A stretch of 64,000 nucleotides of DNA. It comes from an uncultured Deferribacteraceae bacterium. GTDB lineage: Bacteria > Chrysiogenota > Deferribacteres > CAMZNJ01. Below are positions 1 through 49,631 of this stretch, piece after piece. The number at the start of each line of letters is the position of its first letter. Positions within the stretch are counted from its first letter, which is position 1. The stretch lies in NCBI GenBank assembly GCA_947313855.1, contig CAMZNS010000010.1, forward strand, positions 12,769 through 76,768, given 5' to 3'. The notes beneath the pieces were generated by a model. The model worked only from the letters and a program-made list of their open reading frames with translations, was not told where the DNA came from and ran no database searches. A program made the translations under genes and the position numbers.

Positions 1-10
1 CGAAAATACC

Positions 11-745
11 TCACATGGGAACCAACACAGTGATGATAGCAGATGAAACCTGATTCTTAGTCGCAGCATTAAATCGCAGACTCTGAATCACTTCAGCTAC
101 AATCTGCTCCTGAAGGGGGAACCCCCGCTGTATAAAGTTTGTGCTATAAACTCGCCCCGATCTATCCACCAAAATGTACGCTGTAAGGCTTGCAGCCTTA
201 GGTTCGTCCCCCTGCGTAGACTTGCCGATACCACCAACAATAAGGCGTGCCAATCGCTGAAGGTACGCGGCGATACGACCCTTCCCATAGCTGTCGATAA
301 CACTCTGCACGCTATCAAAGCCAACAAGTAGCCTCGGATTTGTCTGAAACGTAATATCTATGCTACCTCTGTCGAGTAGTAGTGTGCGTGGTAGAATATT
401 CCCCACAATAGGTGGGTATTCGAGTGTTTGTGTTCTGTCTGGTGTGATGCTGACAAGGGTGCTTGGTGCGGTGAAGTTGCTTGTCACCGTGCTGATAGGT
501 GCGTGGTTGTTGCTTGTGAGAGTGTTGTTGGTGCTAATTCTTAGTGGTGGTATCGGTTGTTGTTCGACCCCCATGTTGGGCAAAATCTCTTTGATGCTCG
601 GTTTGGCTATGAGGTATGTGATTGATGCTTCGCCCAAGGGTGTGTCAGGTCTTTTGTTTAGTGGTGCAAGAAGGATAACTAGTGCAACGATGCCCACAAT
701 ATGGAGTATTACTGAGACGGAGTAAGCTAGTCGAATTTTGTTCAT
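11..745 (-). CDS. TonB-family energy transducer (N-terminal membrane anchor; C-terminal domain only weakly TonB-like)
   Basis: Third gene of an exbB-exbD-tonB-type operon. N-terminal TM helix, Pro-containing linker, C-terminal ~90 aa with a weak TonB_C-like pattern. Could also be TolA-like. Confidence 0.5.
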   Translation of the reverse strand: MNKIRLAYSVSVILHIVGIVALVILLAPLNKRPDTPLGEASITYLIAKPSIKEILPNMGVEQQPIPPLRISTNNTLTSNNHAPISTVTSNFTAPSTLVSITPDRTQTLEYPPIVGNILPRTLLLDRGSIDITFQTNPRLLVGFDSVQSVIDSYGKGRIAAYLQRLARLIVGGIGKSTQGDEPKAASLTAYILVDRSGRVYSTNFIQRGFPLQEQIVAEVIQSLRFNAATKNQVSSAIITVLVPM

Positions 746-760
746 TGTGTTCCCATCGCA

Positions 761-1171
761 TTATTGGTTTGAGGCTGTTACAGCCACGGCAAAGTTTGTG
801 AAGCCGGCTCTTCTTGCCAAGGCGATAACGTCCATAACATCGCCATGGTAGGAGCCTTTATCAGCTTGAATGGATATATTTGTGTTTGGGTTGCCGAGGG
901 ATTCTTTGAAGATATCATCTTGGAAAGTAGCGATATTGGTTTCTTCACCGTTAATGAAAATGTGTCCGTCGTTGTTGATTTGCACTCGAATGGTGGTGCT
1001 CATCTCCATTTTTGTTTGCGTGTTCATTTCGGGTAGTCGAATGCTTACGGCGTCGGTGTACACGAGTGTTGAAGAGAAGATGAAGAATATTAGCAGTAGG
1101 AACACAACATCCACCATGGGTGCAGTGTTGATCTCTATACCTTTGCCTTTCTCACGGTCGATAAATTTCAT
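761..1171 (-). CDS. exbD: Biopolymer transport protein ExbD/TolR
   Basis: 136 aa, single N-terminal TM (VDVVFLLLIFFIF) and periplasmic domain typical of ExbD/TolR. Sits between the ExbB-like and TonB-like genes. Confidence 0.75.
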   Translation of the reverse strand: MKFIDREKGKGIEINTAPMVDVVFLLLIFFIFSSTLVYTDAVSIRLPEMNTQTKMEMSTTIRVQINNDGHIFINGEETNIATFQDDIFKESLGNPNTNISIQADKGSYHGDVMDVIALARRAGFTNFAVAVTASNQ

Positions 1172-1200
1172 ACTAGTTTTGCTTGCCTGCCTTGGTTTTG

Positions 1201-1857
1201 TTACTCTTTGAAGATGAGGTTGATGACGGAGGATGTATTTTTTTCAATAAAGACTGATATTGCTGTGATACGCATTTCGATGATGTGGTAGAACACTGCC
1301 GTGGGAATGGCAACAATAAGCCCAGCAGCTGTGGTAACAAGGGCGACGGCGATACCAGCGGAGAGGTATTGCATGTCGGTGTACCCTGTGTCTAGTATGG
1401 CGAAGAAGACTTGCATCATCCCTAGGACAGTACCGAGGAGACCAAGGAGTGGTGCGATGGTTGTGATGAGTTTGAGGGTTTGCAGGTATTTGTCTTGTTT
1501 CATGATTTCGTGTCGTCCTGCTTCTTCTGCCACTTCGAGTAGTCGCGAGAGGGGCATATCGAGGTTATTGAGTATGGAGTAGATGATACGTGAGAAGGGT
1601 GAGGAGTCTTTTTTGCAGAGTTCGATGGCTGCGGGTATATTTTTGTTTTTGATGTGTCTGTTTAGGTCGATAAGAAAGTTGTCGTTGATGAATTGTTTTT
1701 CACGAATGGAGAAAAACCGTTCGATGAATACGCCTACGGACACGATGGATAGTGCCACTAGGGGGTAGATAACCATTCCGCTCATGCCTGTAAACAACCA
1801 CATAATTATTAAAACCGCCACTATTCGTTTGTGTTGAGCTCTGAAGTATAGAAACAA
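1201..1857 (-). CDS. exbB: MotA/TolQ/ExbB proton-channel family protein
   Basis: 218 aa. Three TM segments and the conserved LGLLGTVLGMMQVF motif of the MotA_ExbB family. Confidence 0.75.
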   Translation of the reverse strand: MFLYFRAQHKRIVAVLIIMWLFTGMSGMVIYPLVALSIVSVGVFIERFFSIREKQFINDNFLIDLNRHIKNKNIPAAIELCKKDSSPFSRIIYSILNNLDMPLSRLLEVAEEAGRHEIMKQDKYLQTLKLITTIAPLLGLLGTVLGMMQVFFAILDTGYTDMQYLSAGIAVALVTTAAGLIVAIPTAVFYHIIEMRITAISVFIEKNTSSVINLIFKE

Positions 1858-1929
1858 TGCTTACGTACTTATTGTATCATGGTTCACCCTATTTGTATAT
1901 ATTTTACCTAGTCTATTTGCAAAATATTT

Positions 1930-2046
1930 GGCGGGGGGTGTGCGGGGGGTGTGGAGAGGTTGTGTGCGAGGGTGTGCGGGAGGTGTGGAGAGGTTGTGCG
2001 GGGGTGGTCGGTGGTCGGCAGTCGGCAGTCGGCAGTCGGTGGTCAG
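1930..2046. repeat. Intergenic G-rich tandem repeats (about 25-mer x2, then heptamer cggcagt x4)
   Basis: Direct reading of gtgcgg..gtggagaggttgtg duplicated, followed by ggtcggcagtcggcagtcggcagtcggtggtc. Confidence 0.8.
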
Positions 2047-3326
2047 AGTCGTCGCAAAACCGCACGGTAGAATCCGTCGGAGTTCTCGAGATGGGGCATG
2101 ATGTACCCCTGTCGCTCTAGGGTGAACTCGGTATTCGTACGCAAAAAATCTTGGATGACGGCTGTTGTTTCCGCCGGCTCGAGGGAGCAGACACAGTAGT
2201 GGATGTAGTGTTTGGTCAGGGGGGCAACATGGTGGAGCATGGCAAGCTGTATGGGTTGCAATGTTTGTATGTCGCATGAGTTTTTGATGGCACGAACTTC
2301 GGGATGGCGACGAACGGTGCCGAGGCAGGAGCATGGTGCATCGAGCAGTGTGATGTCGCACAGGGGCACATCTTGTGGTGTTACGTCCATGATATCCTTG
2401 TTGAGGGGGCGAACATTGGACACGTTGTAGCCTCGGAGGTAGCTTTTGAGGGTGTTGAATCGGGAGGGATTAATCTCCACAGCGTGTACGAGTGCGTCGG
2501 GTAGGAGTTTTGCCATGGCGACGGTTTTGCCTCCAGGTGCGGCACAGGCGTCTAGGATGTGCAGGGTGTTGTCGTTGACGTTGGTGTTGTCGTTGACGTT
2601 GGTGTTGTCGTTGGCGATTTTCTCCCCAAGCTCAACGGTTTCCAGTGCGACCATGGCAGAGCCCTTGTCCATAGGTAGTACGCCATGTTTCTGCAGGTCT
2701 GATTCGGTTTTCAGGTTTTGGGGGTGTTCGTCCACGCGTATAATTTTGCCCGTATTGAGGTCTAGTCCCCAGTAGACGGGGGGCGTATTGAGGGTTGTGA
2801 GTAGGGTGTGGAGTTCAGCTCCTGTGCAGTGTGTTTTGAGGTTGTTGATAAAGTTGTTGGGGAAGTCGTCGTAAATAGTGTGTTTTGCGAGGATACTCTC
2901 CTTGGTGCGTGCTATTTCCATGAGTATCCAGTTTACAAACGGTTTTTGGTGTTTGGGGGCAAGTTCAACGGTTGTGCTGACTGCGGCGTAGTCGGGTACG
3001 GAGTCCATGAAGAGTATTTGTGCAATACCCATGGCGATAATACTGCGTAGGGCGGGTGTGGTGGTGGATTTGCTGTGGGTATCGATTAGGGAGTCGATGA
3101 AGGGGAGGTGTCGCATGGTGTTCAGGAATATTTTACGGTAGAATTTGCCGTGTTCCGAGTTGAGGAAGAACTCTTCGCTGTAGGAGCCGTTGTACACTTG
3201 GAGGATGAGGGACGCCACAGTACGGCGTTCATTGGCGTTAGCGTTAGTATTGGCGTTAGCGTTAGCAACTCCTGACGGTGATGACTGAGGGTGTGCCTCG
3301 GTGTGTGTGTGCTTGTGTTCAATCAT
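2043..3326 (-). CDS. rsmB: 16S rRNA (cytosine967-C5)-methyltransferase RsmB/Sun
   Basis: SAM-binding motif LDACAAPGGKT and catalytic DAPCSCLGTVRRHPE. N-terminal NusB-like part. Contains in-frame tandem repeats (NVNDNT x3 at 2566-2616; ANANTNANAN at 3232-3268). Confidence 0.85.
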   Translation of the reverse strand: MIEHKHTHTEAHPQSSPSGVANANANTNANANERRTVASLILQVYNGSYSEEFFLNSEHGKFYRKIFLNTMRHLPFIDSLIDTHSKSTTTPALRSIIAMGIAQILFMDSVPDYAAVSTTVELAPKHQKPFVNWILMEIARTKESILAKHTIYDDFPNNFINNLKTHCTGAELHTLLTTLNTPPVYWGLDLNTGKIIRVDEHPQNLKTESDLQKHGVLPMDKGSAMVALETVELGEKIANDNTNVNDNTNVNDNTLHILDACAAPGGKTVAMAKLLPDALVHAVEINPSRFNTLKSYLRGYNVSNVRPLNKDIMDVTPQDVPLCDITLLDAPCSCLGTVRRHPEVRAIKNSCDIQTLQPIQLAMLHHVAPLTKHYIHYCVCSLEPAETTAVIQDFLRTNTEFTLERQGYIMPHLENSDGFYRAVLRRL

Positions 3327-3363
3327 TGTTCAGCGGGCTCCTTTTTTGGGGCGGGAAGTGGCT

Positions 3364-3418
3364 GTTAGCGTTAGCGTTGGCGTTGGCGTTGGCGTTGGCG
3401 TTGGCGTTGCGTTGGCGT
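3364..3418. repeat. Intergenic hexamer tandem repeat (gcgttg/gcgtta x about 9)
   Basis: gttagcgttagcgttggcgttggcgttggcgttggcgttggcgttgcgttggcg. Confidence 0.9.
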
Positions 3419-3440
3419 GAAGGAGTCAGCCTAGCTCTGC

Positions 3441-4736
3441 TTAGTTGTTGCGGAGGATGACAAAATCGCGTGAAACCCAGGCTTTAACACCGTTATCGGT
3501 ACGAATCTGCACCCAGTCGGGGTAGCTGACGCTGTCTATTACTTCGAGTCGGGAGTTGCGTGGCGACTGCAGTATAACATCGGAGTTGAGTGATGGTTGG
3601 TTGCGTAAGTTGAGTACGCGTGCAGCGACAATGGCGTAGTCATATTGGGGGGCAGGGATTACCTCGGGGCTGAGCTCAAGGAGGGGGGTGCCGAGGGTGA
3701 CAACGGTATCGACGGTGTCGGTGTCGATGTCGGTGTCGATGGTTACGATGGCGTCCTCTGTTAGAGAGTTGCGGTCATCCTCGAATAGTGTTGTGTATGT
3801 TTCGACGTCATTGGCTTGAATGTCCACCATGGCGTTGTTCCATTTGGGGTAGAGGAATACTGTGACCGGCACTGTAATAACGACGACTGGGATAACAATG
3901 GTGAAGAAGTTTCGAATGTGGTTATGGAGTCGTACGTTGTTGTTTTCAGGTTTGGGTGTGTCGAAGCAGTCCAGGTCTGCGATGCAGATGTGTTTGCTAC
4001 GTTTGAGGTACATTTGGAAGAGGAGTGTGTGTAAAATACGATTGAGTTGTTCCGTGTTGAGTTTGGATTTCAGGGCGATTGCGGTGATGGTGTCGTTGTC
4101 GTCGTAGCTGATGTGTAGTCGTTCGAATAGTTCAGCAATGCTTAAAACAACTAGGGGTAGGGTTACTTTGGGTAGCGTGTAGAATTCAACTCGGTTTGTC
4201 GCGAGGGTTCCGTTTAGGTGTTTGTTGCTGACTTCGCCAATAGAGGAGATAATTACTTTGGGGATGTCAAGGTTGAGAATATGTTTGTAGAAGTAGGGTG
4301 TGCTTTTCTTTGCGGTGTGGTTGCTGACAATCAGAACGAGGGAGTCTTTGTTGTCGTTGATAAATTCTAGGGTAGAGCTCCATGTGGTGTAGTACTGTTT
4401 TCTGAGTTGGTTTCCTGTTCGGGAGTAGATAGTGGCGTATACTGTATCTTCTGTGTCTGGGTCGTCATGGGTGTGTTTTTTGTCTGGAGAGTGTGGAATG
4501 AGTGTGGAGTCAACTATGCAGATATGTCCGTCGTTGATGCTGTTTGATACGGTGCTGTAGATGATGCTGGTGGTGTCGTGGTGTTTGTCGCCATCGATAA
4601 TGAAGACGTTGTTTTCGGACACCATGAAGTCGCATATCATCGGTTTGAGGTTGTAGAAGAACTCTTGGTCAAGGTTTATGTATTCCCCGTCGCTGTAGAG
4701 TCCTCGGTTGTTGTGGAAAAATTCGTTAAACGTCAT
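3441..4736 (-). CDS. Hypothetical bitopic membrane protein with a C-terminal bacterial SH3 (SH3b) domain
   Basis: 431 aa. About 270 aa N-terminal cytoplasmic domain of unknown fold, one TM (FFTIVIPVVVITVPVTVFLY), D/T-rich linker (TIDTDIDTDTVDTV), C-terminal YPDWVQIRTDNGVKAWVSRDFV SH3b-like module. Last gene of the ank-fapA-like operon. Confidence 0.6.
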   Translation of the reverse strand: MTFNEFFHNNRGLYSDGEYINLDQEFFYNLKPMICDFMVSENNVFIIDGDKHHDTTSIIYSTVSNSINDGHICIVDSTLIPHSPDKKHTHDDPDTEDTVYATIYSRTGNQLRKQYYTTWSSTLEFINDNKDSLVLIVSNHTAKKSTPYFYKHILNLDIPKVIISSIGEVSNKHLNGTLATNRVEFYTLPKVTLPLVVLSIAELFERLHISYDDNDTITAIALKSKLNTEQLNRILHTLLFQMYLKRSKHICIADLDCFDTPKPENNNVRLHNHIRNFFTIVIPVVVITVPVTVFLYPKWNNAMVDIQANDVETYTTLFEDDRNSLTEDAIVTIDTDIDTDTVDTVVTLGTPLLELSPEVIPAPQYDYAIVAARVLNLRNQPSLNSDVILQSPRNSRLEVIDSVSYPDWVQIRTDNGVKAWVSRDFVILRNN

Positions 4737-4903
4737 ATGGCATCACCACTACTTTTTATTATCCCCACGCTCATTTTTGTATGAACAATACCTAGTGCAC
4801 AGGACATACTGGGGTTTGTTTTGAAGCGTTGTTGTGTGTGTGGGGTATTGTTTTTAGATAGTATATGTTAACTTTGGTTGTATTTCTAGTGTTTTCCACT
4901 AGA

Positions 4904-6619
4904 TTATTTTTGGTAGTTTTTGTCGAATGAAACTGGCGTGTTCGATTCTTTAGTGAGCACTGTGTGTCGTGGTGTGTGTATGCGAGTACCCTCTTGCATT
5001 TTTTGTATGTCAGCGTAGAAATTATTACTGTATAGATTTTTGGAGAGAGAGTCAATATTTTCTTGCAGGTTTGTGATATGTTTTTTGAGGTCGGTTATTT
5101 GTTCAAAAACATGTTGGGGATAGTCCATATCGTCGTGAGGGTTGTTGTTGTCGAGTTCTTGTAGTTCGTGGATTTTTATTTCGGTGGTAAGAGCCTGTTT
5201 TTTGAGTTGGTATATTTTGTTTGCTTTTCGGTAGTGGAGTCCCATGTGTATGGATGTGGCGGAGCTACTGGGTGTGCCGATGGTGCCGAGGTATGCGTTG
5301 TGGTAGAAGGTGAGCATCCCCCCTGAGATAGAGGTTGTATCTTTGGTGAGTATGGTTTGTGTTGCCCATATTTTTGAGTTAAAAATATAGTTATCGATGA
5401 TGATAGTGTTGCCGTAGATGTTGGCTTGGCTGGAGTATGAGCAGTGTATGGTGGTGCCATGGATAGAGCTCCCCTTGCCGGCAATGCCATGGGATATGTA
5501 GAGCGTGCCCGTAGAAACTAGCGAAGAGCTCTGTACGGAGCCCATGATGTAGATGGCGTCACCTTGGATTGTGTACCCGCTTTCAACGTCGCTGTTAATG
5601 ATGATGCCACCTTGGAAGGTGATGGTTTTGTCTGTGGGTGGGAGTTTGTCGTAGGTTTTGTGTGGTAGGATGTGGAATGTGTTGTTGTTGAAGGAGACAA
5701 GTCCGGATGTGGTGGCTGTTACAATATTTGACTCTATTTTCACCCCTTGACCAGCGTTGATGGTGATTGTGTTGATTTTTTTGCTAGGAATAATCTCACC
5801 GGTCACAAGTATGGTATCGCGGGCTTGTGTGGCTGGTATTATGCGTGCGAAGCTCTCCCCTTTGTGGACGATGAGTGGTGCTGTTGAGTGCCACAGTAGT
5901 TGTTCCCTATGTTTTGCAAACAGTTGATTGGTGTTGTTTGTGTCGGTGTGTTGTTCAGTTTCGTCGGTATCGGGTTTTTTGTGGAACAGGAGTTTGGTGA
6001 GGTGTGTCAGCCAGCCCTCCTTCTTGGGTACCGATGTGATGTTGCTGTTTATTGTTGTCTTGTGCGGGGTTAGGGGGTTGTGTGCAGTGGTGTGGATGTG
6101 GTTTATGTTGTATCGGGGGTTAGGTTCCGTTGGTTGTATGGGCATTATGGAGGTATCGACGCCGTGTATCGGTTGTTGTTGGTGTGCGATGGGTGCTTGC
6201 AAGATGATGTACCCTTGTGAGGCGTACTGTAGGTATGTGTTGAGTGCTTCGGTGTTTATGAGTGGTTGGTAAAGGTTGTATTTTTTGACGATGTAGTGGG
6301 TTACGGCATCGGGGGAGAGGGATCGCCCTGCACCTAATCGGGGGTAGATGTTGACAGCGACCATGGAGCCATCGGGTTCGATGGAGAGTTTGATGCGTGC
6401 GTCCTGTTTTGGTGCCCGTCCGTCGCTATTTCCGCGAAATATTTTTGCACCGAGTGTGTCGGTTGTTTGGTAGATGCGGTATTGGGAGTTGTGGAGCTTG
6501 TAGACGTCGGTCAGTATTTTGTCGAGAGCATCGCGTCCTGCTTTGGATGGTATGAGGATTGTCATCCCCATGGCGTTATACTGAGCCGTATTTTTTGTAT
6601 TTTTTGATTGCGGTTTCAT
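4904..6619 (-). CDS. FapA-like (DUF342) protein: N-terminal domain, beta-helix-like G/I/V periodic repeats, C-terminal coiled coil
   Basis: 571 aa. Central region with periodic ..G..I.G.V..G.. repeats (ISHGIAGKGSSIHGTTIHCSYSSQANIYGNTIII) and a C-terminal heptad-rich tail, as in flagellar-assembly protein A / DUF342 proteins. Assignment from pattern memory, not a search. Confidence 0.5.
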   Translation of the reverse strand: MKPQSKNTKNTAQYNAMGMTILIPSKAGRDALDKILTDVYKLHNSQYRIYQTTDTLGAKIFRGNSDGRAPKQDARIKLSIEPDGSMVAVNIYPRLGAGRSLSPDAVTHYIVKKYNLYQPLINTEALNTYLQYASQGYIILQAPIAHQQQPIHGVDTSIMPIQPTEPNPRYNINHIHTTAHNPLTPHKTTINSNITSVPKKEGWLTHLTKLLFHKKPDTDETEQHTDTNNTNQLFAKHREQLLWHSTAPLIVHKGESFARIIPATQARDTILVTGEIIPSKKINTITINAGQGVKIESNIVTATTSGLVSFNNNTFHILPHKTYDKLPPTDKTITFQGGIIINSDVESGYTIQGDAIYIMGSVQSSSLVSTGTLYISHGIAGKGSSIHGTTIHCSYSSQANIYGNTIIIDNYIFNSKIWATQTILTKDTTSISGGMLTFYHNAYLGTIGTPSSSATSIHMGLHYRKANKIYQLKKQALTTEIKIHELQELDNNNPHDDMDYPQHVFEQITDLKKHITNLQENIDSLSKNLYSNNFYADIQKMQEGTRIHTPRHTVLTKESNTPVSFDKNYQK

Positions 6620-6680
6620 ATGGCTAAAGCCCCGTTCTTTTTAATTAGGTGCTTTTTTTGTGCATTTAGTTCCCATTTGT

Positions 6681-8066
6681 TTAGTTCCCTTTAATGACGA
6701 CGGGTGTTGTTACGCCACCGATACCTCTGGATACCGATGCTGGTGAGAGTTCTTGTCCGCCGGTGAGTAGAGAGTAGAGGGTTTCGTCGTTATTTGCGGC
6801 AGCAACATCGATTGCGGTGAGTCCGTCACTATTTTGCACAGTTGGTAGTGCACCGAATCGCAGTAGTATTGAGACCCCTTGGTTGTTAGAGTTGCTAACG
6901 GCGTAGTAGAGAGCGGTGTTGCCGAGGTTGTCTTGTGTGTTTGGGTTTGCACCGTTGAGCAGTAGTAGGTACATGGTTTGTATGCTTGACAGTTCGGAGG
7001 AGACGATGAGGGGTGTTTTTCTTTGTCCAACGCGTATGTTTACATCGGCACCGCTTTGGATTAGTCGTCGGACAACGTTGTAGTTGCTGAATGTTATTGC
7101 GATGGTGAGCGGTGTTTGTTGTTCGAAGTTGAGTCTGTTGGGTGATGCTCCTGCAGTGAGTAGTCGTTCGAGTATGTAGATGTTGCTTGTGCCTGATGCT
7201 ATCATGAGAGGTGTGTTGCCGTTGTTGTTGGATATATTTGGGTTGCTGGATTCGTCTAGGAGTAGGTCGACGATGCCGTTGTATCCGCCTTGTGTTGCGT
7301 AGAACAGTTCGTTGTTGCCGGATGTGTCCACAGTGTTTATTTTGGCACCACGGTTGAGTAGTTCTTTTACGATGAAAAGGTTCCCCTGTTTGGCGGCGAT
7401 CATGAGTGCTGTTTGTCCGTCGTTGTTTTTGTGATTGATGTTGATGCCTGAGTTGGCCAAAATAACGGCGATGTCGTTGTATCGGTTCCTTACGGATGCG
7501 ATGAGTGCGTTGTCTCCTGTGACGCTGTCCACTTGGTCTATCTCCACATTGGGGGAGGAGATCATGGATACGACCCTGTCTACTTCGCCACGGGATGAGG
7601 CAACGATGAGGAATATGTCACCGTCGTCGATGGGTGTGCCGGTGGGGTATGCAATGGCGATATCGGAGTTGTAGCTGTAGAAGAACGGGTTAACGTCACT
7701 GCGTCTCATGCGTATGGAGACGTAGTCGGGTTTGACCACTTGAATGCTTCCTGTGAGGTAGTCGGTAAGCATTCCGATGGGTGCGGCGGGGAGTAGTAGT
7801 AGGTTGGCGTAAAACCATGGGCTAATCCCGTCGTAGAATTCGATGGTGGCGTCTTCGTACCCTTGTCGACTGATGGTGATTGAGTCCACAGCGTTTTGGC
7901 TATTGATTTCGAGTAGTGCGGGTGTTTTGTAGTCTTTGCCGTTCACAAAAAAGTTTGAGTTGGGTGGATCGGTGTTGATGGGCACGTATTGTGTTGATGG
8001 GTTCATTAGGGTGGCACATCCGAGTAGTGCGAGTAGTGTTGGCACGAGCAGTAGTGTTAGCAGCAT
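6681..8066 (-). CDS. Ankyrin-repeat lipoprotein
   Basis: Probable start at the internal Met (8066), giving MLLTLLLVPTLLALLGCATL with lipobox LLGC. At least 6 ANK repeats (GNTPLMIA..., TPLTIAI..., KTPLIVSS..., GNTALYYAV...). The ORF extends to 8207 if the upstream Met is used. Confidence 0.75.
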   Translation of the reverse strand: MLLTLLLVPTLLALLGCATLMNPSTQYVPINTDPPNSNFFVNGKDYKTPALLEINSQNAVDSITISRQGYEDATIEFYDGISPWFYANLLLLPAAPIGMLTDYLTGSIQVVKPDYVSIRMRRSDVNPFFYSYNSDIAIAYPTGTPIDDGDIFLIVASSRGEVDRVVSMISSPNVEIDQVDSVTGDNALIASVRNRYNDIAVILANSGININHKNNDGQTALMIAAKQGNLFIVKELLNRGAKINTVDTSGNNELFYATQGGYNGIVDLLLDESSNPNISNNNGNTPLMIASGTSNIYILERLLTAGASPNRLNFEQQTPLTIAITFSNYNVVRRLIQSGADVNIRVGQRKTPLIVSSELSSIQTMYLLLLNGANPNTQDNLGNTALYYAVSNSNNQGVSILLRFGALPTVQNSDGLTAIDVAAANNDETLYSLLTGGQELSPASVSRGIGGVTTPVVIKGN

Positions 8067-8465
8067 ATTGCGTTGTTGTGTGTATTGCGATGGTGCTTTG
8101 CCGACGATAACGCTACTGCTAACGCCACTGCTAACGCTACTGCCGACGATAACGCTGTGGGTAGAGTGTTGGTGGGCGTTAGGGTTGTTTTTCGTAAGTA
8201 TACGCATACCGTTAAGCTCCCTTTGTGGCTGGTAACTTTAGTGTGTTGCACTATGTTTATTGTTTATTCATGTCTCACCTATTTACAATCATACACCAAA
8301 ATAATAGTAGTGGTCAAGTATATTGGCGACTTAATAACGGAATATTCCGTGTACATATTTTATTTGCATGTTGTATAATTGCTATGTGTATTGTAAGATT
8401 GCTCTGACGGAAGTGTTGGAGACAGCAAAACGCAATAAACAACTTTGTTTTGGGAGGTAGTTAGT

Positions 8466-9785
8466 ATGCGAGTAGTAAGCTACACAGAAGGGTGGAGCGG
8501 GCTGAAAACGGTGACGGTAACGGCAATGTTGCTGCTAATGTTAACGATAATGCTGGCTATGGTTACCGCAACAGCAGTCGCATCACCATACTACGTAAAC
8601 TCCCTGCGTGCCCAAGGTATGGGGAACGCCTACACAGGCGTCTCCAACGACAAGTATGCACCATTCTACAACCCTGCAGGGCTGACCTATCTGCGAGAAA
8701 ACAGCATCGTAACCATTCTTGACGGCTCTTATGGCGAAGTGAGCAATCTTGTGCAAGATCTCTACGGCGACTACTCAGATGTCAAGCCGATTATCGACAG
8801 CACCGATATCATTGATCAGGTCGAGGGTGTGTCTGATATTCTGAATACACCGTCAACTTACCGATACTACAAGATAGCTCTGATGCCCCTAGCGTATACC
8901 AAACGTAAGTTTGCCATAGGAACATACGGTGTTGCCAATGCGTACGCCATCTACGGCGGCGACTACATCGAGCTGGAGCTACCCGACAGCATGGATGATA
9001 TCGAGTCTCTATCCGACCTACTCGACCTGCTATCATTCGACCCGGCAAAAGCACCCGTGGGAATAGCTTACACCGAGGCTGGAGCGGGTATCTACACCGC
9101 TCTGTCAAACGACTTTGGCGTAGGGGTAGGACGACTCTCTTACGGCGGTAACATAAGGGTTGGAACAAGATTCACGGGGCTAGGAACAGTAAACCTCGAC
9201 CTAAAACTAAAACAAGTAAGGGCAGAAACAGCGGTAACAGCAGTGTCGGACTTAGGACTAATGTATGCACTAGGTGAAACAGGGCTTCGATACCAAATGG
9301 GTGCCTCCTACAACAATATCTTTATCGCAGAAACAGCAATCAAGCAAAAGAAAGGGGACAAGCCGTTCCCCTACAACAGCTACCTAACACCGACGGTACT
9401 CAATATCGGTGGTGCAATCATCATTCCCACAGGCTCACAACCAACCATCGACGGCATTACCCTTGCCGTGGACCTACCCGACGCACTAGACCAACGGAAC
9501 ATATCTGACTACCGAATAGGCAATCAGTACGCGAATATGTTTAACTATGGTGCTGAAGTGAATTTTGCAGAACGGTTTGCATTACGCACAGGGCTAAACG
9601 AAGGGTATGGCACAGCGGGTGCGGGCATCAGACTGCTAGGACTCACAGTGGACTACGCCTACTACGTGGAAACACCTCCTGCCCCCGTAACCATTGAAAC
9701 AGGTGTGGAGGACGGCACCCTAACACTATTCGCCAATCGTGGAGCGGTACGCAAGCACTCGGTTAATGTTGGGTTCAACTTCTAG
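8466..9785 (+). CDS. FadL/OmpP1/TodX-family outer-membrane hydrophobic-compound transporter
   Basis: Signal peptide. N-terminal hatch region RAQGMGNAYTGVSNDKYAPFYNPAGL with the FadL-family NPA motif. About 440 aa, terminal Phe (VNVGFNF). Strong RBS GGGAGG 8 nt upstream of ATG 8466. The ORF track's 8445 start is a TTG extension. Confidence 0.65.
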   Translation: MRVVSYTEGWSGLKTVTVTAMLLLMLTIMLAMVTATAVASPYYVNSLRAQGMGNAYTGVSNDKYAPFYNPAGLTYLRENSIVTILDGSYGEVSNLVQDLYGDYSDVKPIIDSTDIIDQVEGVSDILNTPSTYRYYKIALMPLAYTKRKFAIGTYGVANAYAIYGGDYIELELPDSMDDIESLSDLLDLLSFDPAKAPVGIAYTEAGAGIYTALSNDFGVGVGRLSYGGNIRVGTRFTGLGTVNLDLKLKQVRAETAVTAVSDLGLMYALGETGLRYQMGASYNNIFIAETAIKQKKGDKPFPYNSYLTPTVLNIGGAIIIPTGSQPTIDGITLAVDLPDALDQRNISDYRIGNQYANMFNYGAEVNFAERFALRTGLNEGYGTAGAGIRLLGLTVDYAYYVETPPAPVTIETGVEDGTLTLFANRGAVRKHSVNVGFNF

Positions 9786-9805: not shown

Positions 9806-9889
9806 AACAGACGCACAGACGCACAGACGCACAGACGCACAGACGCACAGACGCACAGACGCACAGACGCACAGACGCACAGACGCACA
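9806..9889. repeat. 8-bp tandem repeat (cagacgca x about 10)
   Basis: Direct reading. Immediately after the stop of the FadL-like gene. Confidence 0.9.
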
Positions 9890-14388: not shown

Positions 14389-14544
14389 CCCGCACGGCTG
14401 GCAATTGGCACGGCTGGTAATTGGCACGGCTAGTAATTGGCACGGCTGGTAATTGGCACGGCTAGTAATTGGCACGGCTGGCAATTGGCACGGCTAGTAA
14501 TTGGCACGGCTAGTAATTGGCACGGCTGGTAATTGGCACGGCTA
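14389..14544. repeat. 17-bp tandem repeat (ggcacggctggtaattg x about 9, with g/c and g/a variants)
   Basis: Direct reading. Lies between ccmA and ccmB. Confidence 0.9.
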
Positions 14545-17679: not shown

Positions 17680-19287
17680 TTGAAATATCTACTTTGGGGT
17701 TATAATAGCGTGTTGATTTTGATTCGCCTACTTCTTGTTGTTATAATTATGCATGCTGTTCTTGTGGGATCTGCCCTCGGCGTGTCGCCTCAGTATGACA
17801 AATCTGGTGCCACTCAGCGTGAGGGAGCAATATGGTACGATGGCAAACCGTACTACAATATGGGCTCCATCGAAAGCCTGCTGGGAACACTTATCGCCGA
17901 CGAAAACTACGACGAAGCTCTGTTCCTACTAGACACACTCGAACCCCTTTACCCGCAAAACTATCGCCTCTACAAATATCGTGCCGAAACCTATGCCAAC
18001 ATGGGGGAAGCCGCCAAAGCCGCCGACTCATATCGAGACTACTTCAACACAGCAACATTTCGCGATCGCGACGCACTAATAAAATTCACCACCATCCTTT
18101 TCGGACTACGGCAATACGGTGAAGTTCGAAACTACCTGGATAAGTTTCACAACCGAAACGGCGAATACTACTACTACTACGGCTTAACATACTACCGCGA
18201 AGGGTTATTTTATCAGGCAAGACGTAACTTCGCAAAGGTTCCCACGGGCAGTAGCTACTACCTCTCAGCACTACAACTTAGCGTTGAGTCGTGCATCGCT
18301 CTGGGGCAGTACGGCTGTGCACGCGACGGGTACGCCCTCATGAGCTCCCTCATCATCCCCGGTGCCAAGAGCCTGTCTGAGGCTGGATTCCTCCTGCTGA
18401 ACAGCTACAAAAGTCGCAACAGCTTCTACGTCGATGTACGAGGCACATATGAACTCAATCCGGGGCTAGTCAACAAAGGATCCATAGCAGCACCATCCGC
18501 AAGCGTTTTTGCCAACTACGCATACCTAGCCTACCCGTTCAGCACCTTCGATATTGTCACTAGCTCCATCTACATCGACACCAATCGATACCTTGGCTCT
18601 GAGGACTTAGGGTATTTGTCTTACACCGTAGCGGGGCTCTCCTTGGTGGGGGAGGTCAGCAACGACGGGTATCGTGTTCGCCCCTTAGACCTACTGGCAG
18701 AGTTGTGGGCAGGTGATGATGGTCTAACCCGTGCTAGGGTTGGACTAGGGGTGCAGTGGGCAGGGAACTACGCCCTAAGTGTGCGTTTCCCTGTCTCCAT
18801 CACATACAACCACTTCCTTGACGACAAAAGAAAGGGTGAAATCGGTGCTGTTGAGGGGGCGGGAGCCTTAATTCTGGGGTACAATAACATAAATGTTCAC
18901 CATAAAGTTTTTGTTAAAGGGCTCGCTTACTCACCCATTCAACCCCAAACTGTAGGCACAACATCATCCGGACCCTTCATTAATTTCGCTGGCGGATACG
19001 AAGGGGGCTACTTTACTGATCGTTATTCCTTAGGTTTTTTTATGAACCAATCAGCAGAGCAGTACCTCAATCAAATAGTGGATCTATCCGTAGGCGTTGC
19101 CGGAATTCAACCAACCTACTACACAACCACTGTTGGTGCTGATGTGGGCGTATTCCTTCGCAATAGCATCAAGCTTTACGTTACTGGGCAGTACACTAAA
19201 GGTTTCTCGAATATGGCGAAGTTTTACGGCGGACTAGGGGACTACAACAACGTGGTTTTCGGCTCGGGTGCATCCCTTGTCTTTTAA
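17680..19287 (+). CDS. Hypothetical outer-membrane protein: N-terminal TPR-like region plus C-terminal beta-barrel-like domain
   Basis: Signal-peptide-like N-terminus, TPR-like helical repeats (YDEALFLLDTLEPLYPQNYRLYKYRAETYANMGEAAKA), Gly/aromatic-rich C-terminal half ending GASLVF (terminal Phe). Confidence 0.55.
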   Translation: MKYLLWGYNSVLILIRLLLVVIIMHAVLVGSALGVSPQYDKSGATQREGAIWYDGKPYYNMGSIESLLGTLIADENYDEALFLLDTLEPLYPQNYRLYKYRAETYANMGEAAKAADSYRDYFNTATFRDRDALIKFTTILFGLRQYGEVRNYLDKFHNRNGEYYYYYGLTYYREGLFYQARRNFAKVPTGSSYYLSALQLSVESCIALGQYGCARDGYALMSSLIIPGAKSLSEAGFLLLNSYKSRNSFYVDVRGTYELNPGLVNKGSIAAPSASVFANYAYLAYPFSTFDIVTSSIYIDTNRYLGSEDLGYLSYTVAGLSLVGEVSNDGYRVRPLDLLAELWAGDDGLTRARVGLGVQWAGNYALSVRFPVSITYNHFLDDKRKGEIGAVEGAGALILGYNNINVHHKVFVKGLAYSPIQPQTVGTTSSGPFINFAGGYEGGYFTDRYSLGFFMNQSAEQYLNQIVDLSVGVAGIQPTYYTTTVGADVGVFLRNSIKLYVTGQYTKGFSNMAKFYGGLGDYNNVVFGSGASLVF

Positions 19288-20262: not shown

Positions 20263-20452
20263 GTTGTGCGTTTGCAATGTTGTGCGTTGGTAGCGTTGCG
20301 TTTGCAATGTTGGTGTTGACCGCGTTGCGTTTGCAATGTTGTGCGTTGACCGCGTTGCGTTTGCAATGTTGTGCGTTGACCGCGTTGCGTTTGCAATGTT
20401 GTGCGTTGGTAGCGTTGCGTTTGCAATGTTGGTGTTGACCACGTTGCGTTGG
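20260..20452. repeat. About 30-bp tandem repeat x6 (core gcgttgcgtttgcaatgttg with variable 10-bp linkers)
   Basis: Direct reading. No unique spacers, so not CRISPR. Confidence 0.9.
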
Positions 20453-21287: not shown

Positions 21288-21592
21288 CGGGCAGCGTGGC
21301 ACAGCTTGAGTCGGCGTTGCGTTATGTTGGCGTATTCGCGTTGCAGTTGCGTTGCAGTTGCGTTGCACAGCTTGAGTCGGCGTTGCGTTATGTTGGCGTA
21401 TTCGCGTTGCAGTTGCGTTGCAGTTGCGTGGCACAGCTTGAGTCGGCGTTGCGTTATGTTGGCGTATTCGCGTTGCAGTTGCGTTGCACAGCTTGAGTCG
21501 GCGTTGCGTTATGTTGGCGTATTCGCGTGGCAGTTGCGTGGCACAGCTTGAGTCGGCGTTGCGTTATGTTGGCGTATTCGCGTTGCAGTTTT
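21288..21592. repeat. About 60-66-bp tandem repeat x5 (ggcacagcttgagtcggcgttgcgttatgttggcgtattcgcgttgcagttgcgttgca...)
   Basis: Direct reading. Units contain nested gcgttgcagtt sub-repeats. No unique spacers. Confidence 0.9.
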
Positions 21593-24431: not shown

Positions 24432-26294
24432 ATGGATGGTTTGAGTTTATACAAGTTTTTTCGGTGCTGTAACGAAATTTTCGGGGCTAACGCTAACGCT
24501 AACGCTAACGCTGGTGCTGGTGCTAACGCTGGTGCTGGTGCTAACGCTAACGCTGGTGCTAACGCTGGTGCACAAGTGAACTCACTCCTACTATGGAACG
24601 ACGCCATCTACCTCAACCTTTACAAAAAAGAGGTACACTCGTTGGCATTTACGTTCGGATCTGGTCGTGCTAGCCTGTCGTTTGTGAGCGATACATTTTC
24701 GTCGAAGCAGGTGGGTATTTTCGAGAACCTACGTGGGGGCACTGTTGAGGGGTTTTCCACCCATGGACATGATCGCATCGGGTTTGTTGACATAGCGAAA
24801 CGTCGCCCTAGTGGTAAGTTGCAGCGGTTTCGGTTAGTGTTTGAGATTGTTGGTGCCATGTCCAACTTCTTTATCCTTGATGGCGAAACTGGTCGCATCC
24901 TCTACAACCTTAATCAGCGTAACATGGATACCGCTCGCTCTATCGGCGTGTCCCATGTGTATCAACCCTTTGCCTCCAACAAAACCATGGCTTTGGCGAA
25001 CTACAGCAGTGCCTCTGAGGCTCGACTTGACGCCCCTACGAATAGTTCGGCGTCTGCTGCTGCTGAGGCGTATTTTTCGTCCCTCGAAGGGTTCTCCAAA
25101 CCACTTGTACGCGAGGCTGTTGATCTGGTTGAGTCGCACGGTTACGATGTGGCGTTGGAGTATATTTTCCATGAAATAAATATGGGCACCGACTTTTACG
25201 CCCAAGACGCCACCCTATTGCCCTTTACAAGGCATGTCTGTGGTATGGATGATTTCGCCAATGTGGGGGGTACATCCCCTGAGACACCCCCTGAGACACC
25301 CCCTGTTGAGGGAGCAAAGTGGCGTGCATACAACTTTCTGAGCCCAGAGATGGGAGCGTATTTGCAGTCCTTGACACCGCGGGAAGCTACCCTGCGAATA
25401 TCTGTGGCAAGTAGTATTCGTAAGGGGCTTAAAAAATATACTCAGCTGTGCAAAGGCTTACGTACCGAGTTGGAGAACGCCTCAAACTACGAAAAATATC
25501 GCCAAGAGGCAGACCTACTAAAGATGAACCTACACACTGTTCGAGGTCGCGGCGTCTACAGCCTCACCAAATACACCCCTGATGGCGTTGAATCGAATAT
25601 CCGATACACCTACAACAGCGATCTACATGTTCACGACTACATGAAACGACTCTACCACCGTGCAGGACGACTCGAACGAGGTATCCCTGTCATACAAGAA
25701 AGACTCAACCTCATGGAAAGCTATGTGAAGTTTTACGAAGAACAGGAACACTACTGCGAAACAGCATCATACGGCGAACTGCTCTACATGCGAAGTAACG
25801 TGCTCGTGCTTGGCAAAAAAGGGGGGGAACCTAACAAACACGGATCCGGCGGTGCCAAAGGACGCAAAAAACTGGACGCTCGACTAAAATATGAAGGGTT
25901 CCACCGATTCGAAATAGACGGCGTACTGTGCATGCTCGGGAAAAATAGTCGCGGAAACCACGAACTACTACGTGAAGCACTGCCACACGACCACTGGGTG
26001 CACGCCAAAGGGATACCATCTGCACACGGAATAATACGATGGAACAACGACAACAACACTAACCATGACCAAGATAAACTGGACGCACTAATACACACAA
26101 TGGCTCAACTAGTTGCACACTACACCAAAACAACCAACAAACAGGTGGAAATAGACTACACAATACGCAAAAATGTGCGAAACGTAAAAGGTGCACCCAT
26201 GGGGTTCGTAACCTACAAAGGATTCAAAACCATCGCTGTGAACAAAATGAACAAAAACAAAGTAGAACAAATTATCGAGAACAGGAAGCGGTAA
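24432..26294 (+). CDS. RqcH/FbpA-like NFACT-family protein (ribosome quality control)
   Basis: C-terminal NFACT-R/DUF814-like HDHWVHAKGIPSAHGIIRWNND, coiled coil in the middle. N-terminus carries an in-frame hexamer repeat (ANANANANAGAGANAGAGANANAGANAGA, 24487-24570) and PETPPETPP (25276-25303). Confidence 0.65.
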   Translation: MDGLSLYKFFRCCNEIFGANANANANAGAGANAGAGANANAGANAGAQVNSLLLWNDAIYLNLYKKEVHSLAFTFGSGRASLSFVSDTFSSKQVGIFENLRGGTVEGFSTHGHDRIGFVDIAKRRPSGKLQRFRLVFEIVGAMSNFFILDGETGRILYNLNQRNMDTARSIGVSHVYQPFASNKTMALANYSSASEARLDAPTNSSASAAAEAYFSSLEGFSKPLVREAVDLVESHGYDVALEYIFHEINMGTDFYAQDATLLPFTRHVCGMDDFANVGGTSPETPPETPPVEGAKWRAYNFLSPEMGAYLQSLTPREATLRISVASSIRKGLKKYTQLCKGLRTELENASNYEKYRQEADLLKMNLHTVRGRGVYSLTKYTPDGVESNIRYTYNSDLHVHDYMKRLYHRAGRLERGIPVIQERLNLMESYVKFYEEQEHYCETASYGELLYMRSNVLVLGKKGGEPNKHGSGGAKGRKKLDARLKYEGFHRFEIDGVLCMLGKNSRGNHELLREALPHDHWVHAKGIPSAHGIIRWNNDNNTNHDQDKLDALIHTMAQLVAHYTKTTNKQVEIDYTIRKNVRNVKGAPMGFVTYKGFKTIAVNKMNKNKVEQIIENRKR

Positions 26295-33006: not shown

Positions 33007-34659
33007 ATGTTTTTTATGAAGACAAGGTATGTATTACTTTACTTATTAGGCATGGCAATAATCGCAACCTACATGCTGACTGCAGTGGCGTGGGCTGAAT
33101 CGGATGACCTTGACTCCGAAAATACCACCAGAAATACCACCGAAAATACCGACAACTACAGCGACGCCGGAAGCGACACAGCAGCGTACGACTTCGCATA
33201 CAACACCAGTGTGGACTATCGAAGCATACGAGAACGTGCCATACAATTCTCCACCACCACGGCCGTCAACAACATGAACAGCATAAACAACAACAACCTC
33301 ATACTCGCCAACATATTTATCTATAACCAAAGCCAGCAAAAAAACGTTGCATTTGTTGACAAAAGCAACCTCACAATATATGTGGGAACTTACCAAGGCG
33401 ATAAACTCGAAATAACCGATACATTCGACATCCTAGTCGGTGAAGCAGAGGGGGACAAAGTACGCGAAGGGGATCGAAAAACACCCGAAGGGGTCTACTA
33501 CACCGTGGACTACCTAAGCAATAAATACCTCACAAACCGATACGGAAACCAAGTGGGAAATATCTACGGCACAGGAGCTTTCCCCATCAACTACCCCAAC
33601 ATTGTCGACAAAATAGAAGGGCGAGGCGGAAGCGGTATCTGGATACACGGACTCAACCCCGAAAAACACAAACCCGTTACCCTCGGGTGCATCGCCATGG
33701 GGAACGAACGATTCGACCGACTAATGACCTACATGAACGTAGGGGTGACCACGGTCATCGGCGAAACACTAAACTTTACCCCCGACAGGGATGCCTACCT
33801 AAAGGAAAAAACTCGCTACTACAACTTCATCGAAAACTTCACAAACGCTTGGAGCACAAACAATTACGACGCTTACGCCGAAATGTTCCACCAACAGTTT
33901 AGAACACCAGCAGGGGTCAGGCGTGGAAGCTTCCTTGGACGCAAAAAAAGCATAATGGATTACGGACTCTCAATCAACAAACAAACAAACAAAAACATTA
34001 CCAACACAACAAACACCGTGGAAACAACAGGGGCAACTCTTGCCGAAAACAGACGCATCGCACAAATGCTCAAAGGGAACAAACTAATCACCTTCAACAA
34101 CCTAACAGTATTCGTTGAGCGAGACCTAGTTGTCTACGACTTCAACCAACTCTACGCAACCAACAACCTCATCTCCTACGGCAATAAGCGTTACTACGTC
34201 AAAGATACTGCCAACGAACTCGATGGACGCAACGGACGCAACGGACGCAACGGACTGCAGGTAATATCGGAAGAGTTCACACCCAGCGATGCCAACACCA
34301 AAAAAGAGGCGATTATGCCTTACGTGCAAACATTCCTGCAAACGTGGATACAGGCTTGGGAAACCAAAGATGTGGACGGCTACACAGCAATGTACTCGCC
34401 GGCATTCCGCCACAAAGGCACAAACATGGGGCTAAGACAGTTTGCCGCATACAAACAAGGCGTATTCCAGAGGGCGGGGAACATCTCCGTGGAATACTCC
34501 AACGTAACAATCGAATCCATTGCCGCAGGTAGTGTTACCGTGAGCTTTACACAAAAATACTCATCAGACACCGTCGCCGATACGGGCAAAAAAGTCTTAG
34601 TGCTAACAGGGCGACCCGATCTATTCAGTATCCGCTCCGAAGCTTGGTTCAAACTGTAA
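33007..34659 (+). CDS. L,D-transpeptidase (YkuD domain) with two C-terminal NTF2/SnoaL-like (DUF4440-type) domains
   Basis: Signal peptide. Catalytic GSGIWIHGLNPEKHKPVTLGCIAMGN (His...Gly-Cys). Two copies of the pattern F..W..AW...D.D.Y..MF downstream. In-frame GRNGRNGRNG (34225-34253). Confidence 0.7.
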   Translation: MFFMKTRYVLLYLLGMAIIATYMLTAVAWAESDDLDSENTTRNTTENTDNYSDAGSDTAAYDFAYNTSVDYRSIRERAIQFSTTTAVNNMNSINNNNLILANIFIYNQSQQKNVAFVDKSNLTIYVGTYQGDKLEITDTFDILVGEAEGDKVREGDRKTPEGVYYTVDYLSNKYLTNRYGNQVGNIYGTGAFPINYPNIVDKIEGRGGSGIWIHGLNPEKHKPVTLGCIAMGNERFDRLMTYMNVGVTTVIGETLNFTPDRDAYLKEKTRYYNFIENFTNAWSTNNYDAYAEMFHQQFRTPAGVRRGSFLGRKKSIMDYGLSINKQTNKNITNTTNTVETTGATLAENRRIAQMLKGNKLITFNNLTVFVERDLVVYDFNQLYATNNLISYGNKRYYVKDTANELDGRNGRNGRNGLQVISEEFTPSDANTKKEAIMPYVQTFLQTWIQAWETKDVDGYTAMYSPAFRHKGTNMGLRQFAAYKQGVFQRAGNISVEYSNVTIESIAAGSVTVSFTQKYSSDTVADTGKKVLVLTGRPDLFSIRSEAWFKL

Positions 34660-34721
34660 TGGCACACAACTTAAATGGGGCACTTATCATACGTCAAAGA
34701 TTGTCAAAAAGGGGAACAGAT

Positions 34722-38404: not shown

Positions 38405-38490
38405 AGTTTATGGGTAGCGTTGCGGTAGCGGTAGCGTTGCGGTTGTACAACTGTGCACAATTGTGCACGATTGTGCACGATTGTGCAGAA
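38405..38490. repeat. Intergenic tandem repeats (agcgttgcggt units; ttgtgcacgattgtgcacgattgtgca)
   Basis: Direct reading between ubiA-like and the following membrane protein. Confidence 0.85.
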
Positions 38491-38559
38491 GGCATAAATA
38501 TTGCTAGTTTACTTGGGAAACTATCAGTACGTCTTATTAAGGTTCCCTTTGGGAGAAGC

Positions 38560-49602: not shown

Positions 49603-49631
49603 TTGACAAGGGGTCAACGTTTGGCTATACT
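49603..49631 (+). promoter_or_regulatory. Consensus sigma70 promoter TTGACA-17-TATACT driving the tRNA pair
   Basis: ttgaca 49603-49608, 17-bp spacer, tatact 49626-49631. The tRNA starts at 49645. Confidence 0.7.

Follow-up and report, generated by a model that had tools for sequence, protein, structure and literature searches.

A FapA-family gene and a gene for a bitopic SH3b-domain protein kept side by side in Candidatus Rimicarispirillum-like Deferribacterota: a possible wall-anchored docking module

The 64,000-nucleotide stretch of DNA analyzed here, called the window in what follows, comes from an uncultured Deferribacteraceae bacterium and carries three neighboring genes that a preliminary description of the sequence had presented as one operon. 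In the direction of transcription, these are a gene for a lipoprotein with a PEGA-like domain and ankyrin repeats (6681–8207, an open reading frame (ORF) of 508 aa when read from the ATG at 8207), a FapA/DUF342-family gene (4904–6619, 571 aa), and a gene for a bitopic membrane protein (3441–4736, 431 aa). The latter, referred to here as the SH3b protein, consists of a tentatively AAA+-like cytoplasmic domain, a transmembrane helix, and an SH3b domain. All three genes, and all features described within and between them, lie on the minus strand. The gaps of 61 bp between the ankyrin and fapA genes (6620–6680) and 167 bp between the fapA and SH3b genes (4737–4903) agree with those given in the preliminary description. 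ORFs on the opposite strand within this interval overlap the three genes and are taken as spurious.

A scan of one genome per species yielded a single relative of the SH3b protein, 80% identical, from the uncultured Deferribacteraceae bacterium M_SnakePit_MAG_00002. The lineage of this metagenome-assembled genome (MAG) is Candidatus Rimicarispirillum (Ca. Microvillispirillaceae), which comprises bacteria living as symbionts in the midgut of the vent shrimp Rimicaris exoculata (PMC9636832). These bacteria form long, strongly polarized filaments that elongate without division and are wedged between the host microvilli, and their MAGs contain over 30 genes for flagella as well as chemotaxis genes and a type II secretion system (T2SS) (PMC9636832). 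Proteins encoded around the three genes are 78–96% identical between the window and M_SnakePit_MAG_00002; a region of ~15 kb is fully collinear. Sequence comparison places the window in a sister species of M_SnakePit_MAG_00002, within Candidatus Rimicarispirillum-like Deferribacterota.

The assignment of the middle gene product to FapA/DUF342, made earlier for a protein of 571 aa, is borne out by two Pfam families that score above their cut-offs. PF03961 (FapA) matches residues 333–565 with 91.7 bits (cut-off 31), covering profile positions 16–265 of 272; this part of the gene (4925–5623) would encode the β-solenoid and the C-terminal helical/coiled-coil region. PF20250 (FapA_N) matches residues 251–313 with 51.5 bits (cut-off 27; profile positions 113–178), and the first half of the same profile (positions 1–87) gives a weak match at residues 76–164 (E = 0.048). 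The FapA_N domain is therefore split by a low-complexity insert of ~85 aa (residues 165–250; 5870–6127). An amphipathic membrane-targeting helix in this insert was considered and rejected: the basic segment has a high hydrophobic moment (µH 0.59) only in the relative P0003, not in the window protein. Sequence searches detected no solved structure for the FapA protein.

Relatives of this FapA protein occupy just four clusters among 5.8 billion, with identities of 96% (P0001), 83% (P0002), 44% (P0003), and 24% (P0004). A scan of the genome collection returned the sister species only, and a search of metagenomes with the FapA alignment gave no relatives. The gene for the most distant of the four, P0004, is part of a classical flagellar operon, with flgG on one side and cheC/cheD on the other. 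Among the 40 proteins of the 64-kb window that were scanned with Pfam, none belongs to a flagellar or chemotaxis family, and a flagellar link is unsupported here for that reason. FapA/DUF342 proteins are widespread and poorly understood; to our knowledge, the sole mechanistic thread is their polar recruitment by a wall-anchored landmark in Vibrio, and we found almost nothing relevant in the literature on DUF342.

The SH3b protein has one hydrophobic segment and no N-terminal signal peptide. The segment forms a single predicted transmembrane helix (residues ~278–298; 3843–3905; Kyte–Doolittle maximum 2.62), and the sequence indicates an inner-membrane protein with its N terminus in the cytoplasm and its C terminus in the periplasm, in agreement with the bitopic topology proposed before. 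The helix is followed by an acidic, Asp/Thr-rich periplasmic linker (3621–3842), also recognized before, which has 16 acidic residues (D+E), one basic residue (K+R), and 11 threonines in the 72 residues analyzed. Part of this linker is encoded by a hexanucleotide tandem repeat (3713–3741), and its length and sequence vary between orthologues. The C-terminal SH3b domain (residues 374–426; 3459–3617) matches PF08239 (SH3_3) with 45.1 bits (cut-off 27), and with an E value of 1.8e-12 when the C-terminal fragment is searched alone. From its periplasmic location and the usual role of the family, we infer that this domain ties the protein to peptidoglycan. Relatives of the whole protein are very few as well: three among the 5.8 billion clusters, namely P0005 (100%, the same sequence), P0006 (80%), and P0007 (44%), of which P0006 and P0007 are the only relatives found among 1.84 billion representatives.

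The cytoplasmic domain of the SH3b protein (residues 1–277; 3906–4736) was initially described as being of unknown fold, and this still holds insofar as no sequence homologue turned up beyond the relatives named above; low-confidence models now point to an AAA+-like fold. A profile of residues 1–277 retrieved only the two known relatives from the 1.84 billion representatives, and searches of Pfam (at E ≤ 10), NCBIfam, and the PDB sequences gave nothing credible; matches to FlhD (E = 0.69) and DnaA_N (E = 0.11) were dismissed as noise. Two AlphaFold2 predictions were made from three-sequence alignments, with low-confidence pLDDT values of 48.9 and 59.6, and both models consist of an α/β core followed by a helical bundle. 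The better model matched mostly AAA+ proteins of the clamp-loader/initiator/RuvB type, a result on which two search methods agree. In Foldseek, all of the top 50 matches (50/50) were AAA+ proteins, with RFC5 first (E = 6e-4, probability 0.89), at TM-scores of 0.20–0.28.

Neither a Walker A motif (GxxxxGK[ST]) nor a Walker B motif (hhhhDE) is present in this domain; the corresponding segments read IIDGDKHHDTTS and LVLIVSN, and none of the four aligned sequences contains GK[ST] or an acidic pair. The stretch TNRVEFYTLP, followed by ISYDD..T..IA.KS....LN.ILHTL, presumably resembles the region from SRC/box VII to the lid of clamp-loader subunits. Hence, residues 1–277 may tentatively be regarded as an AAA+-like pseudo-ATPase domain that has lost both Walker motifs. 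An alternative idea, a degenerate “deviant Walker A” of the MinD/ParA type, received no support from hhalign and was replaced by the AAA+-like reading derived from the better model.

The window, a second Rimicarispirillum species (L002/L006; 83% identity for FapA, 80% for the SH3b protein), and a more distant lineage (L003; 44% and 46%, respectively) all have fapA followed by the SH3b gene. Within the genus, adjacency is uninformative because the whole ~15-kb region is collinear. The informative case for fapA–SH3b linkage is L003, a 3.2-kb contig from run SRR23346874, on which the gene for a FapA protein of 44% identity is followed, after a gap of 258 bp, by one for an SH3b homologue with 46% identity across the cytoplasmic domain and transmembrane helix. 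The two proteins also share an extremely narrow distribution, given the four and three clusters mentioned above. Between the two species, FapA and the SH3b protein are 81–83% identical, compared with 88–96% for seven of nine neighbors, the exceptions being the rsmB product (84%) and that of a TonB-like gene (78%); the two genes evolve faster than most of their neighbors. Two further contigs are too short to be informative on linkage. L015 carries the SH3b gene (for P0007) alone. L009, which encodes an ankyrin orthologue (88%), ends 177 bp downstream of that gene, where an ORF begins that cannot be recognized as FapA.

The claim of an operon was not supported. The spacer between fapA and the SH3b gene (4737–4903) could contain an internal promoter, with promoter-like sites at 4888–4860 and 4785–4758, and a −10-like element (GATAAT/GGTAAT) together with a GGTGATG ribosome-binding site (RBS) ahead of the SH3b gene is kept in L002, L006, and L003. 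Promoter-like and terminator-like sites are no more numerous in the region than in shuffled sequence. No terminator is evident between the genes; a candidate after fapA, a hairpin at 4885–4903, was rejected, as its T-run is on the wrong strand and it is not conserved in L002/L006. Moreover, the same-strand run goes on beyond the SH3b gene into rsmB (2043–3326), exbB, exbD, and the TonB-like gene, so that the boundary drawn around three genes is arbitrary. The transcription signals for a joint operon are, as far as the sequence tells, equivocal.

These observations bear on the possibility that three unrelated, fast-evolving, lineage-specific genes are neighbors by descent only and have no joint function, being embedded in a syntenic housekeeping stretch with the order porV-like/ank/fapA/SH3b/rsmB/exbBD. 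Such an arrangement would account for the ~15-kb collinearity between the two Rimicarispirillum species, for the co-directional run into rsmB and exbB/exbD, for the promoter-like sites in the fapA–SH3b spacer, and for the occurrence of ankyrin-family relatives in unrelated contexts (see below). It is harder to reconcile with a FapA–SH3b adjacency that persists at 44–46% identity, with the equally and extremely narrow distribution of the two proteins, and with the pairing of a cytoplasmic scaffold and a bitopic wall-binding protein, which resembles that of FapA and HubP in Vibrio. On balance, we regard mere descent as a somewhat unlikely explanation for the arrangement of the three genes.

For the ankyrin gene, the situation is different. 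The lipobox noted in the preliminary description is confirmed: L-L-G-C occupies residues 61–64 of the 508-aa ORF (LLALLG|C, with Cys64 as the lipidated residue expected from the pattern [LVI][ASTVI][GAS]C), directly after the only hydrophobic window of the protein (hydrophobic core plus lipobox, 8016–8066), and it is kept as LLGC or LFGC in orthologues, including P0008 and P0009. The start codon originally chosen, at 8066 (Met48), has no RBS. The gene probably starts at the ATG at 8207 instead, because an RBS (AGGGAG) and a promoter-like site lie upstream and because the first 14 residues read from there are conserved in an orthologue, the intervening stretch differing by in-frame repeat units. 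The promoter-like site (TTGACC-18-TATGAT; 8288–8317), located ~80 nt upstream of 8207, agrees with the consensus at 10 of 12 positions and is a consensus match only. A start at 8207 would give an unusually long n-region of 47 aa. A weak Rfam match to the mir-34 precursor in the repeat-rich 5′ end of the gene (8039–8140; 27.1 bits, gathering score 53.4) was discarded as almost certainly a chance hairpin.

The lipoprotein was said to be made almost entirely of ankyrin repeats. Nine 33-residue repeats, counted by eye in the translation, are indeed present at residues ~196–484 (6756–7622), and the protein matches Ank_2 (1.7e-45) and Ank (2.8e-40) as well as Ank_4 and Ank_5, the four Pfam matches ranging from 1e-23 to 1e-45. 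They are, however, preceded by a PEGA-like module of ~105 aa (residues 64–169; 7701–8018) that also resembles the LEPBI_I2678 lipoprotein. This module scores just below the cut-off for Pfam PEGA (18.1 versus 20.8 bits), matches NCBIfam NF047662 (LEPBI_I2678) with 1.4e-11 (44.6 bits; cut-off 240), and matches phrog_6823, a small PHROG lipoprotein family, with 8.7e-6. An origin from a defense system or a phage was considered and rejected, since the only PADLOC and PHROGs matches are to generic ankyrin repeats and to the small lipoprotein domain.

Close orthologues of the ankyrin lipoprotein are 94–96% (P0008/L002/L006) and 88% (P0009, on L009) identical. More distant proteins with the PEGA-like plus ankyrin (ANK) architecture, P0011, P0015, P0019, and P0035, come from Deferribacteraceae-like MAGs (P0035 being labeled as from a Deferribacteraceae MAG) and share with the window protein a signal peptide or lipobox, the N-terminal β-domain, and a first ankyrin repeat with TGDNAL. 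The alignment of the window protein with P0011, P0019, and P0035 shows the common motifs GW..G..D(F/Y).TG and TGDNAL, in support of a homologous domain. With nine repeats and 508 aa, the window protein is smaller than these relatives (650–665 aa), and it does not have their ~60-aa linker. Unlike the window gene, none of the four has a FapA or SH3b gene as a neighbor; their contexts are cheY–cheZ–cheA–OmpA (L007), rpsF–ssb–rpsR plus a cation-efflux gene (L011–L014), and other unrelated genes (L010). On L007 (JGI 3300042594; 838–7956), the co-directional run consists of cheY, a cheZ-like gene, cheA, an 88-aa ORF, an OmpA-family gene, a gene for a 324-aa unknown, and finally the gene for P0035, a hint at a link between part of the ankyrin family and genes for motility or chemotaxis.

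According to the preliminary description, the combination of the three proteins would span the envelope and could be a polar landmark or envelope anchor. Spelled out as a single trans-envelope complex, this would mean that the outer-membrane or periplasmic ankyrin lipoprotein contacts the SH3b protein across the periplasm, with FapA on the cytoplasmic side. The co-directional genes, the short ank–fapA gap (61 bp in the window, 43 bp in L002), the complementary predicted compartments, and the strong constraint on the ankyrin protein, which is 96% identical between the two Rimicarispirillum species, are all compatible with this model. Yet ank and fapA are linked in one genus only, the searches recovered no ankyrin orthologue of ~45% identity, and P0011, P0015, P0019, and P0035 occur apart from FapA and SH3b genes. 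On the L003 contig, no more than 63 bp remain upstream of fapA, too little to check for ank in that divergent lineage. A three-protein complex thus appears quite improbable. What survives of the three-protein proposal is the FapA–SH3b pair, adjacent in three lineages, whereas the conservation of the neighborhood does not extend to the ankyrin gene. By its sequence, the ankyrin lipoprotein is a separate periplasmic or outer-membrane protein and belongs to a wider PEGA-like plus ANK family; it may be co-transcribed in this genus and is probably a mere neighbor of the FapA/SH3b pair.

The ankyrin lipoprotein could, independently of this pair, be a host-interaction factor that is surface exposed or released and touches the microvilli. 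In favor of such a role are its secretion as a lipoprotein with Ala at position +2, its strong conservation (88–96% identity), and the presence of Brachyspira proteins among its best ANK matches. Some Brachyspira species attach end-on to the gut epithelium. The ANK likeness to Brachyspira is, though, generic repeat similarity; surface exposure is not established for Deferribacterota, ankyrin proteins go unmentioned in the published genome papers, and a purely periplasmic role is equally possible. We therefore consider a role in host interaction unlikely, while noting that it would be compatible with a FapA/SH3b module.

Several other features of the window were recorded. Divergently oriented upstream of the ankyrin gene lies a gene for a PorV/FadL-like outer-membrane protein (8445–9785, plus strand). 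Its predicted β-barrel product matches NCBIfam PorV_fam with 1.2e-15, below the cut-off, and gives weak matches to Toluene_X and TraF_2; this PorV/PorQ- or FadL-like gene keeps the same position in the sister species. Tandem repeats are very dense, with 81 TRF rows in 64 kb, mostly with periods of 6–30 nt and a few longer (≤156 nt). Many spacers are filled with repeats, for example, at 9807–9889, 14392–14543, 20267–20450, 21294–21590, 48856–49291, 55742–55995, and 61493–61667; the spacer between the SH3b gene and rsmB contains (TGGCGT)x10 (3359–3418). Repeats within genes (2565–2613, 3231–3266, 3713–3741, 8099–8156, and 24486–24566) are in frame and encode low-complexity peptides, such as ANANAN in RsmB, DTDIDTD in the SH3b linker, and VSS repeats in the n-region of the ankyrin protein. 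The related short contigs L015 and L009 end in or near tandem repeats, and the repeats could be hypervariable or assembly-breaking loci.

The base composition of the window is strand dependent. Coding strands of minus-strand genes are strongly C-rich and A-rich, with a GC skew of −0.18 to −0.38, compared with a value near zero for plus-strand genes (window 1–8200 versus the rest), and G makes up 8–14% of third codon positions in the genes of the cluster. This looks like a coding-strand bias combined with a replication-strand bias and is not specific to the cluster. Horizontal transfer, or an island, was rejected, as the coding-strand bias (C>G, A>T) is common to other minus-strand genes across the window.

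Elsewhere in the window, 33007–36374 (plus strand) encodes a YkuD L,D-transpeptidase with a Cds6_C NTF2-like domain, followed directly by a Peptidase_M99 carboxypeptidase of the Csd4/Pgp1 type, a family that, according to Pfam, controls helical cell shape; this is in keeping with the spiral morphology that these symbionts are reported to have. A tyrosine (phage-type) integrase gene lies beside a gene for a DUF805 membrane protein (42547–44602, minus strand), and at 48856–49820, a tandem array of 22 copies of a 20-nt unit immediately precedes two tandem tRNA-Met genes (49644–49719 and 49745–49820); the integrase region and the array with its tRNA genes may be remnants of an integration hotspot. 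ORFs of 248–535 aa without a Pfam match at E ≤ 1e-5 occur at 17680–19287, 38410–39822, 46340–47656, 51595–53221, 54144–54890, and 57792–58835. Judged by these ORFs, the window carries lineage-specific proteins beyond the three studied here.

Returning to the FapA and SH3b genes, we tentatively propose, as the reading that we favor among those considered, that they form a lineage-restricted two-gene module in which the SH3b protein provides a wall-anchored docking platform for a FapA paralog. The SH3b protein would be fixed in the inner membrane, and its SH3b domain, carried at the tip of a flexible acidic linker, would tether it to peptidoglycan. On the cytoplasmic side, the soluble FapA paralog, a β-solenoid with a coiled coil, would dock on the nucleotide-blind AAA+-like domain (residues 1–277), which would be its fixed platform. 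Together, the two proteins would make up a cytoplasmic scaffold that is anchored to the wall at a defined site of the envelope, most plausibly the cell pole.

This proposal is reasonable in view of two precedents, HubP–FapA and ExeA/GspA. HubP, a bitopic peptidoglycan-binding landmark, is described as recruiting FapA to the pole in V. vulnificus (Park et al. 2019, as cited in PMC12918733). The polar localization of FapA and its dependence on a landmark protein or on EIIA-Glc are known only from experiments in Vibrio. ExeA is a cytoplasmic AAA ATPase with one transmembrane helix and a periplasmic peptidoglycan-binding domain, and it multimerizes on peptidoglycan (PMC4098917). The idea of a polar landmark, raised in the preliminary description, becomes more plausible by analogy with HubP–FapA.

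A number of points weigh against a wall-anchored docking platform. The evidence is comparative only. The adjacency of the two genes is documented in only three lineages of one family, in which shared ancestry could explain it, and the 167-bp gap may hold a separate promoter. The models of the cytoplasmic domain are poor (pLDDT 49–60, Foldseek TM-scores 0.20–0.28), and the first of them drew only generic P-loop matches (Clp1/Grc3 and helicases), not AAA+ proteins. In hhalign comparisons of the N-domain alignment with single P-loop/Rossmann proteins (FlhF, a partial FlhG, PhoH, TsaE, CcmA, MutS2, shikimate kinase, and controls), all probabilities were ≤0.5%. SH3b domains do not always bind peptidoglycan. 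Lastly, the SH3b protein has no sequence similarity to ExeA/AAA_22 or HubP in Pfam at E ≤ 10, and no flagellar or chemotaxis family was found among the 40 Pfam-scanned proteins of the 64-kb window.

A more far-reaching version would combine all three genes into a polar attachment apparatus of the symbiont, in which the SH3b-pinned pseudo-AAA+ domain nucleates a FapA scaffold at the pole inserted between the microvilli, and the co-transcribed ankyrin lipoprotein faces the host from the outer membrane. We consider such an apparatus very improbable; if it existed, FapA would have been re-used, away from flagella, for a host-anchoring pole. The more modest docking platform, if real, would provide a second, unrelated wall-anchored partner beside a FapA paralog, so that FapA with a peptidoglycan-tethered bitopic docking protein would possibly be a recurrent design rather than a peculiarity of Vibrio. 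It would also provide another example of an AAA+-like domain placed before a transmembrane helix and a wall-binding domain, an order for which ExeA/GspA is the case known to us. Lineage-specific polarity factors are plausible candidates for how the symbiont filament keeps its position, since the filament grows undividing while wedged between the gut microvilli of the shrimp. The practical value is limited, given an uncultured bacterium and comparative evidence.

Compared with known systems, the window FapA protein follows ordinary FapA/DUF342 proteins, such as FapA of Vibrio vulnificus, in the order of FapA_N, β-solenoid, and C-terminal helices. It differs from them in its split FapA_N domain and an N-terminal extension of ~75 aa, in its low identity (24%) to P0004, the nearest ordinary FapA that was recovered, and in being encoded outside any flagellar or chemotaxis cluster. 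Its gene instead adjoins one for a bitopic protein of the wall-binding type, which echoes the recruitment of Vibrio FapA by HubP. The SH3b protein shares with HubP/FimV the bitopic inner-membrane plan, with a periplasmic wall-binding domain (predicted here) and a cytoplasmic part to which a client would dock (proposed here). The topology is reversed, however, with the wall-binding domain at the C terminus; this domain is of the SH3b rather than the LysM type, and an N-terminal periplasmic LysM domain, acidic cytoplasmic repeats, and a FimV/TPR C-terminal domain all went undetected in the window protein. HubP is also much larger than the ~430 aa of the SH3b protein.

Proteins of the SH3_and_anchor family (TIGR04211, YgiM type) likewise combine an SH3b domain with a single anchor, and the window protein matches this family weakly (E = 0.0019; 17.9 versus 65 bits). 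The order is opposite, as the anchor precedes the SH3b domain in the window protein, and a cytoplasmic domain of 277 aa is added. Inactive AAA+ subunits of clamp loaders (Pol III delta and RFC5) are a further point of comparison for this domain. In contrast to these subunits, the window domain is tethered to the membrane and fused to a periplasmic SH3b domain, with no sequence-level homology and no replication context.

A match in domain order is offered by ExeA/GspA, the factor for assembly of the T2SS secretin in Aeromonas and Vibrio, in which a cytoplasmic domain of the AAA+ type (seen here in low-confidence models), one transmembrane helix, and a periplasmic domain of the peptidoglycan-binding type follow each other as in the SH3b protein. 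This match, together with the T2SS and the more than 30 flagellar genes reported for the MAGs (PMC9636832), would allow the SH3b protein to be a functional analogue of ExeA/GspA that helps a secretin or another large envelope machine (the T2SS or flagellar rings) through the peptidoglycan, FapA being incidental. We hold this to be highly improbable: neither Pfam (E ≤ 10; AAA_22/ExeA) nor NCBIfam gives a sequence match, Walker A and B are missing, whereas ExeA depends on its ATPase domain, the periplasmic domain is SH3_3 and not PG_binding_1, and the neighbors are fapA and rsmB, not ExeB/GspB, with no gspB/exeB-like gene found nearby and no T2SS gene found in the window. The likeness of the SH3b protein to both ExeA/GspA and HubP is, by analogy, best taken as indicating a possible working mode rather than membership in either family.

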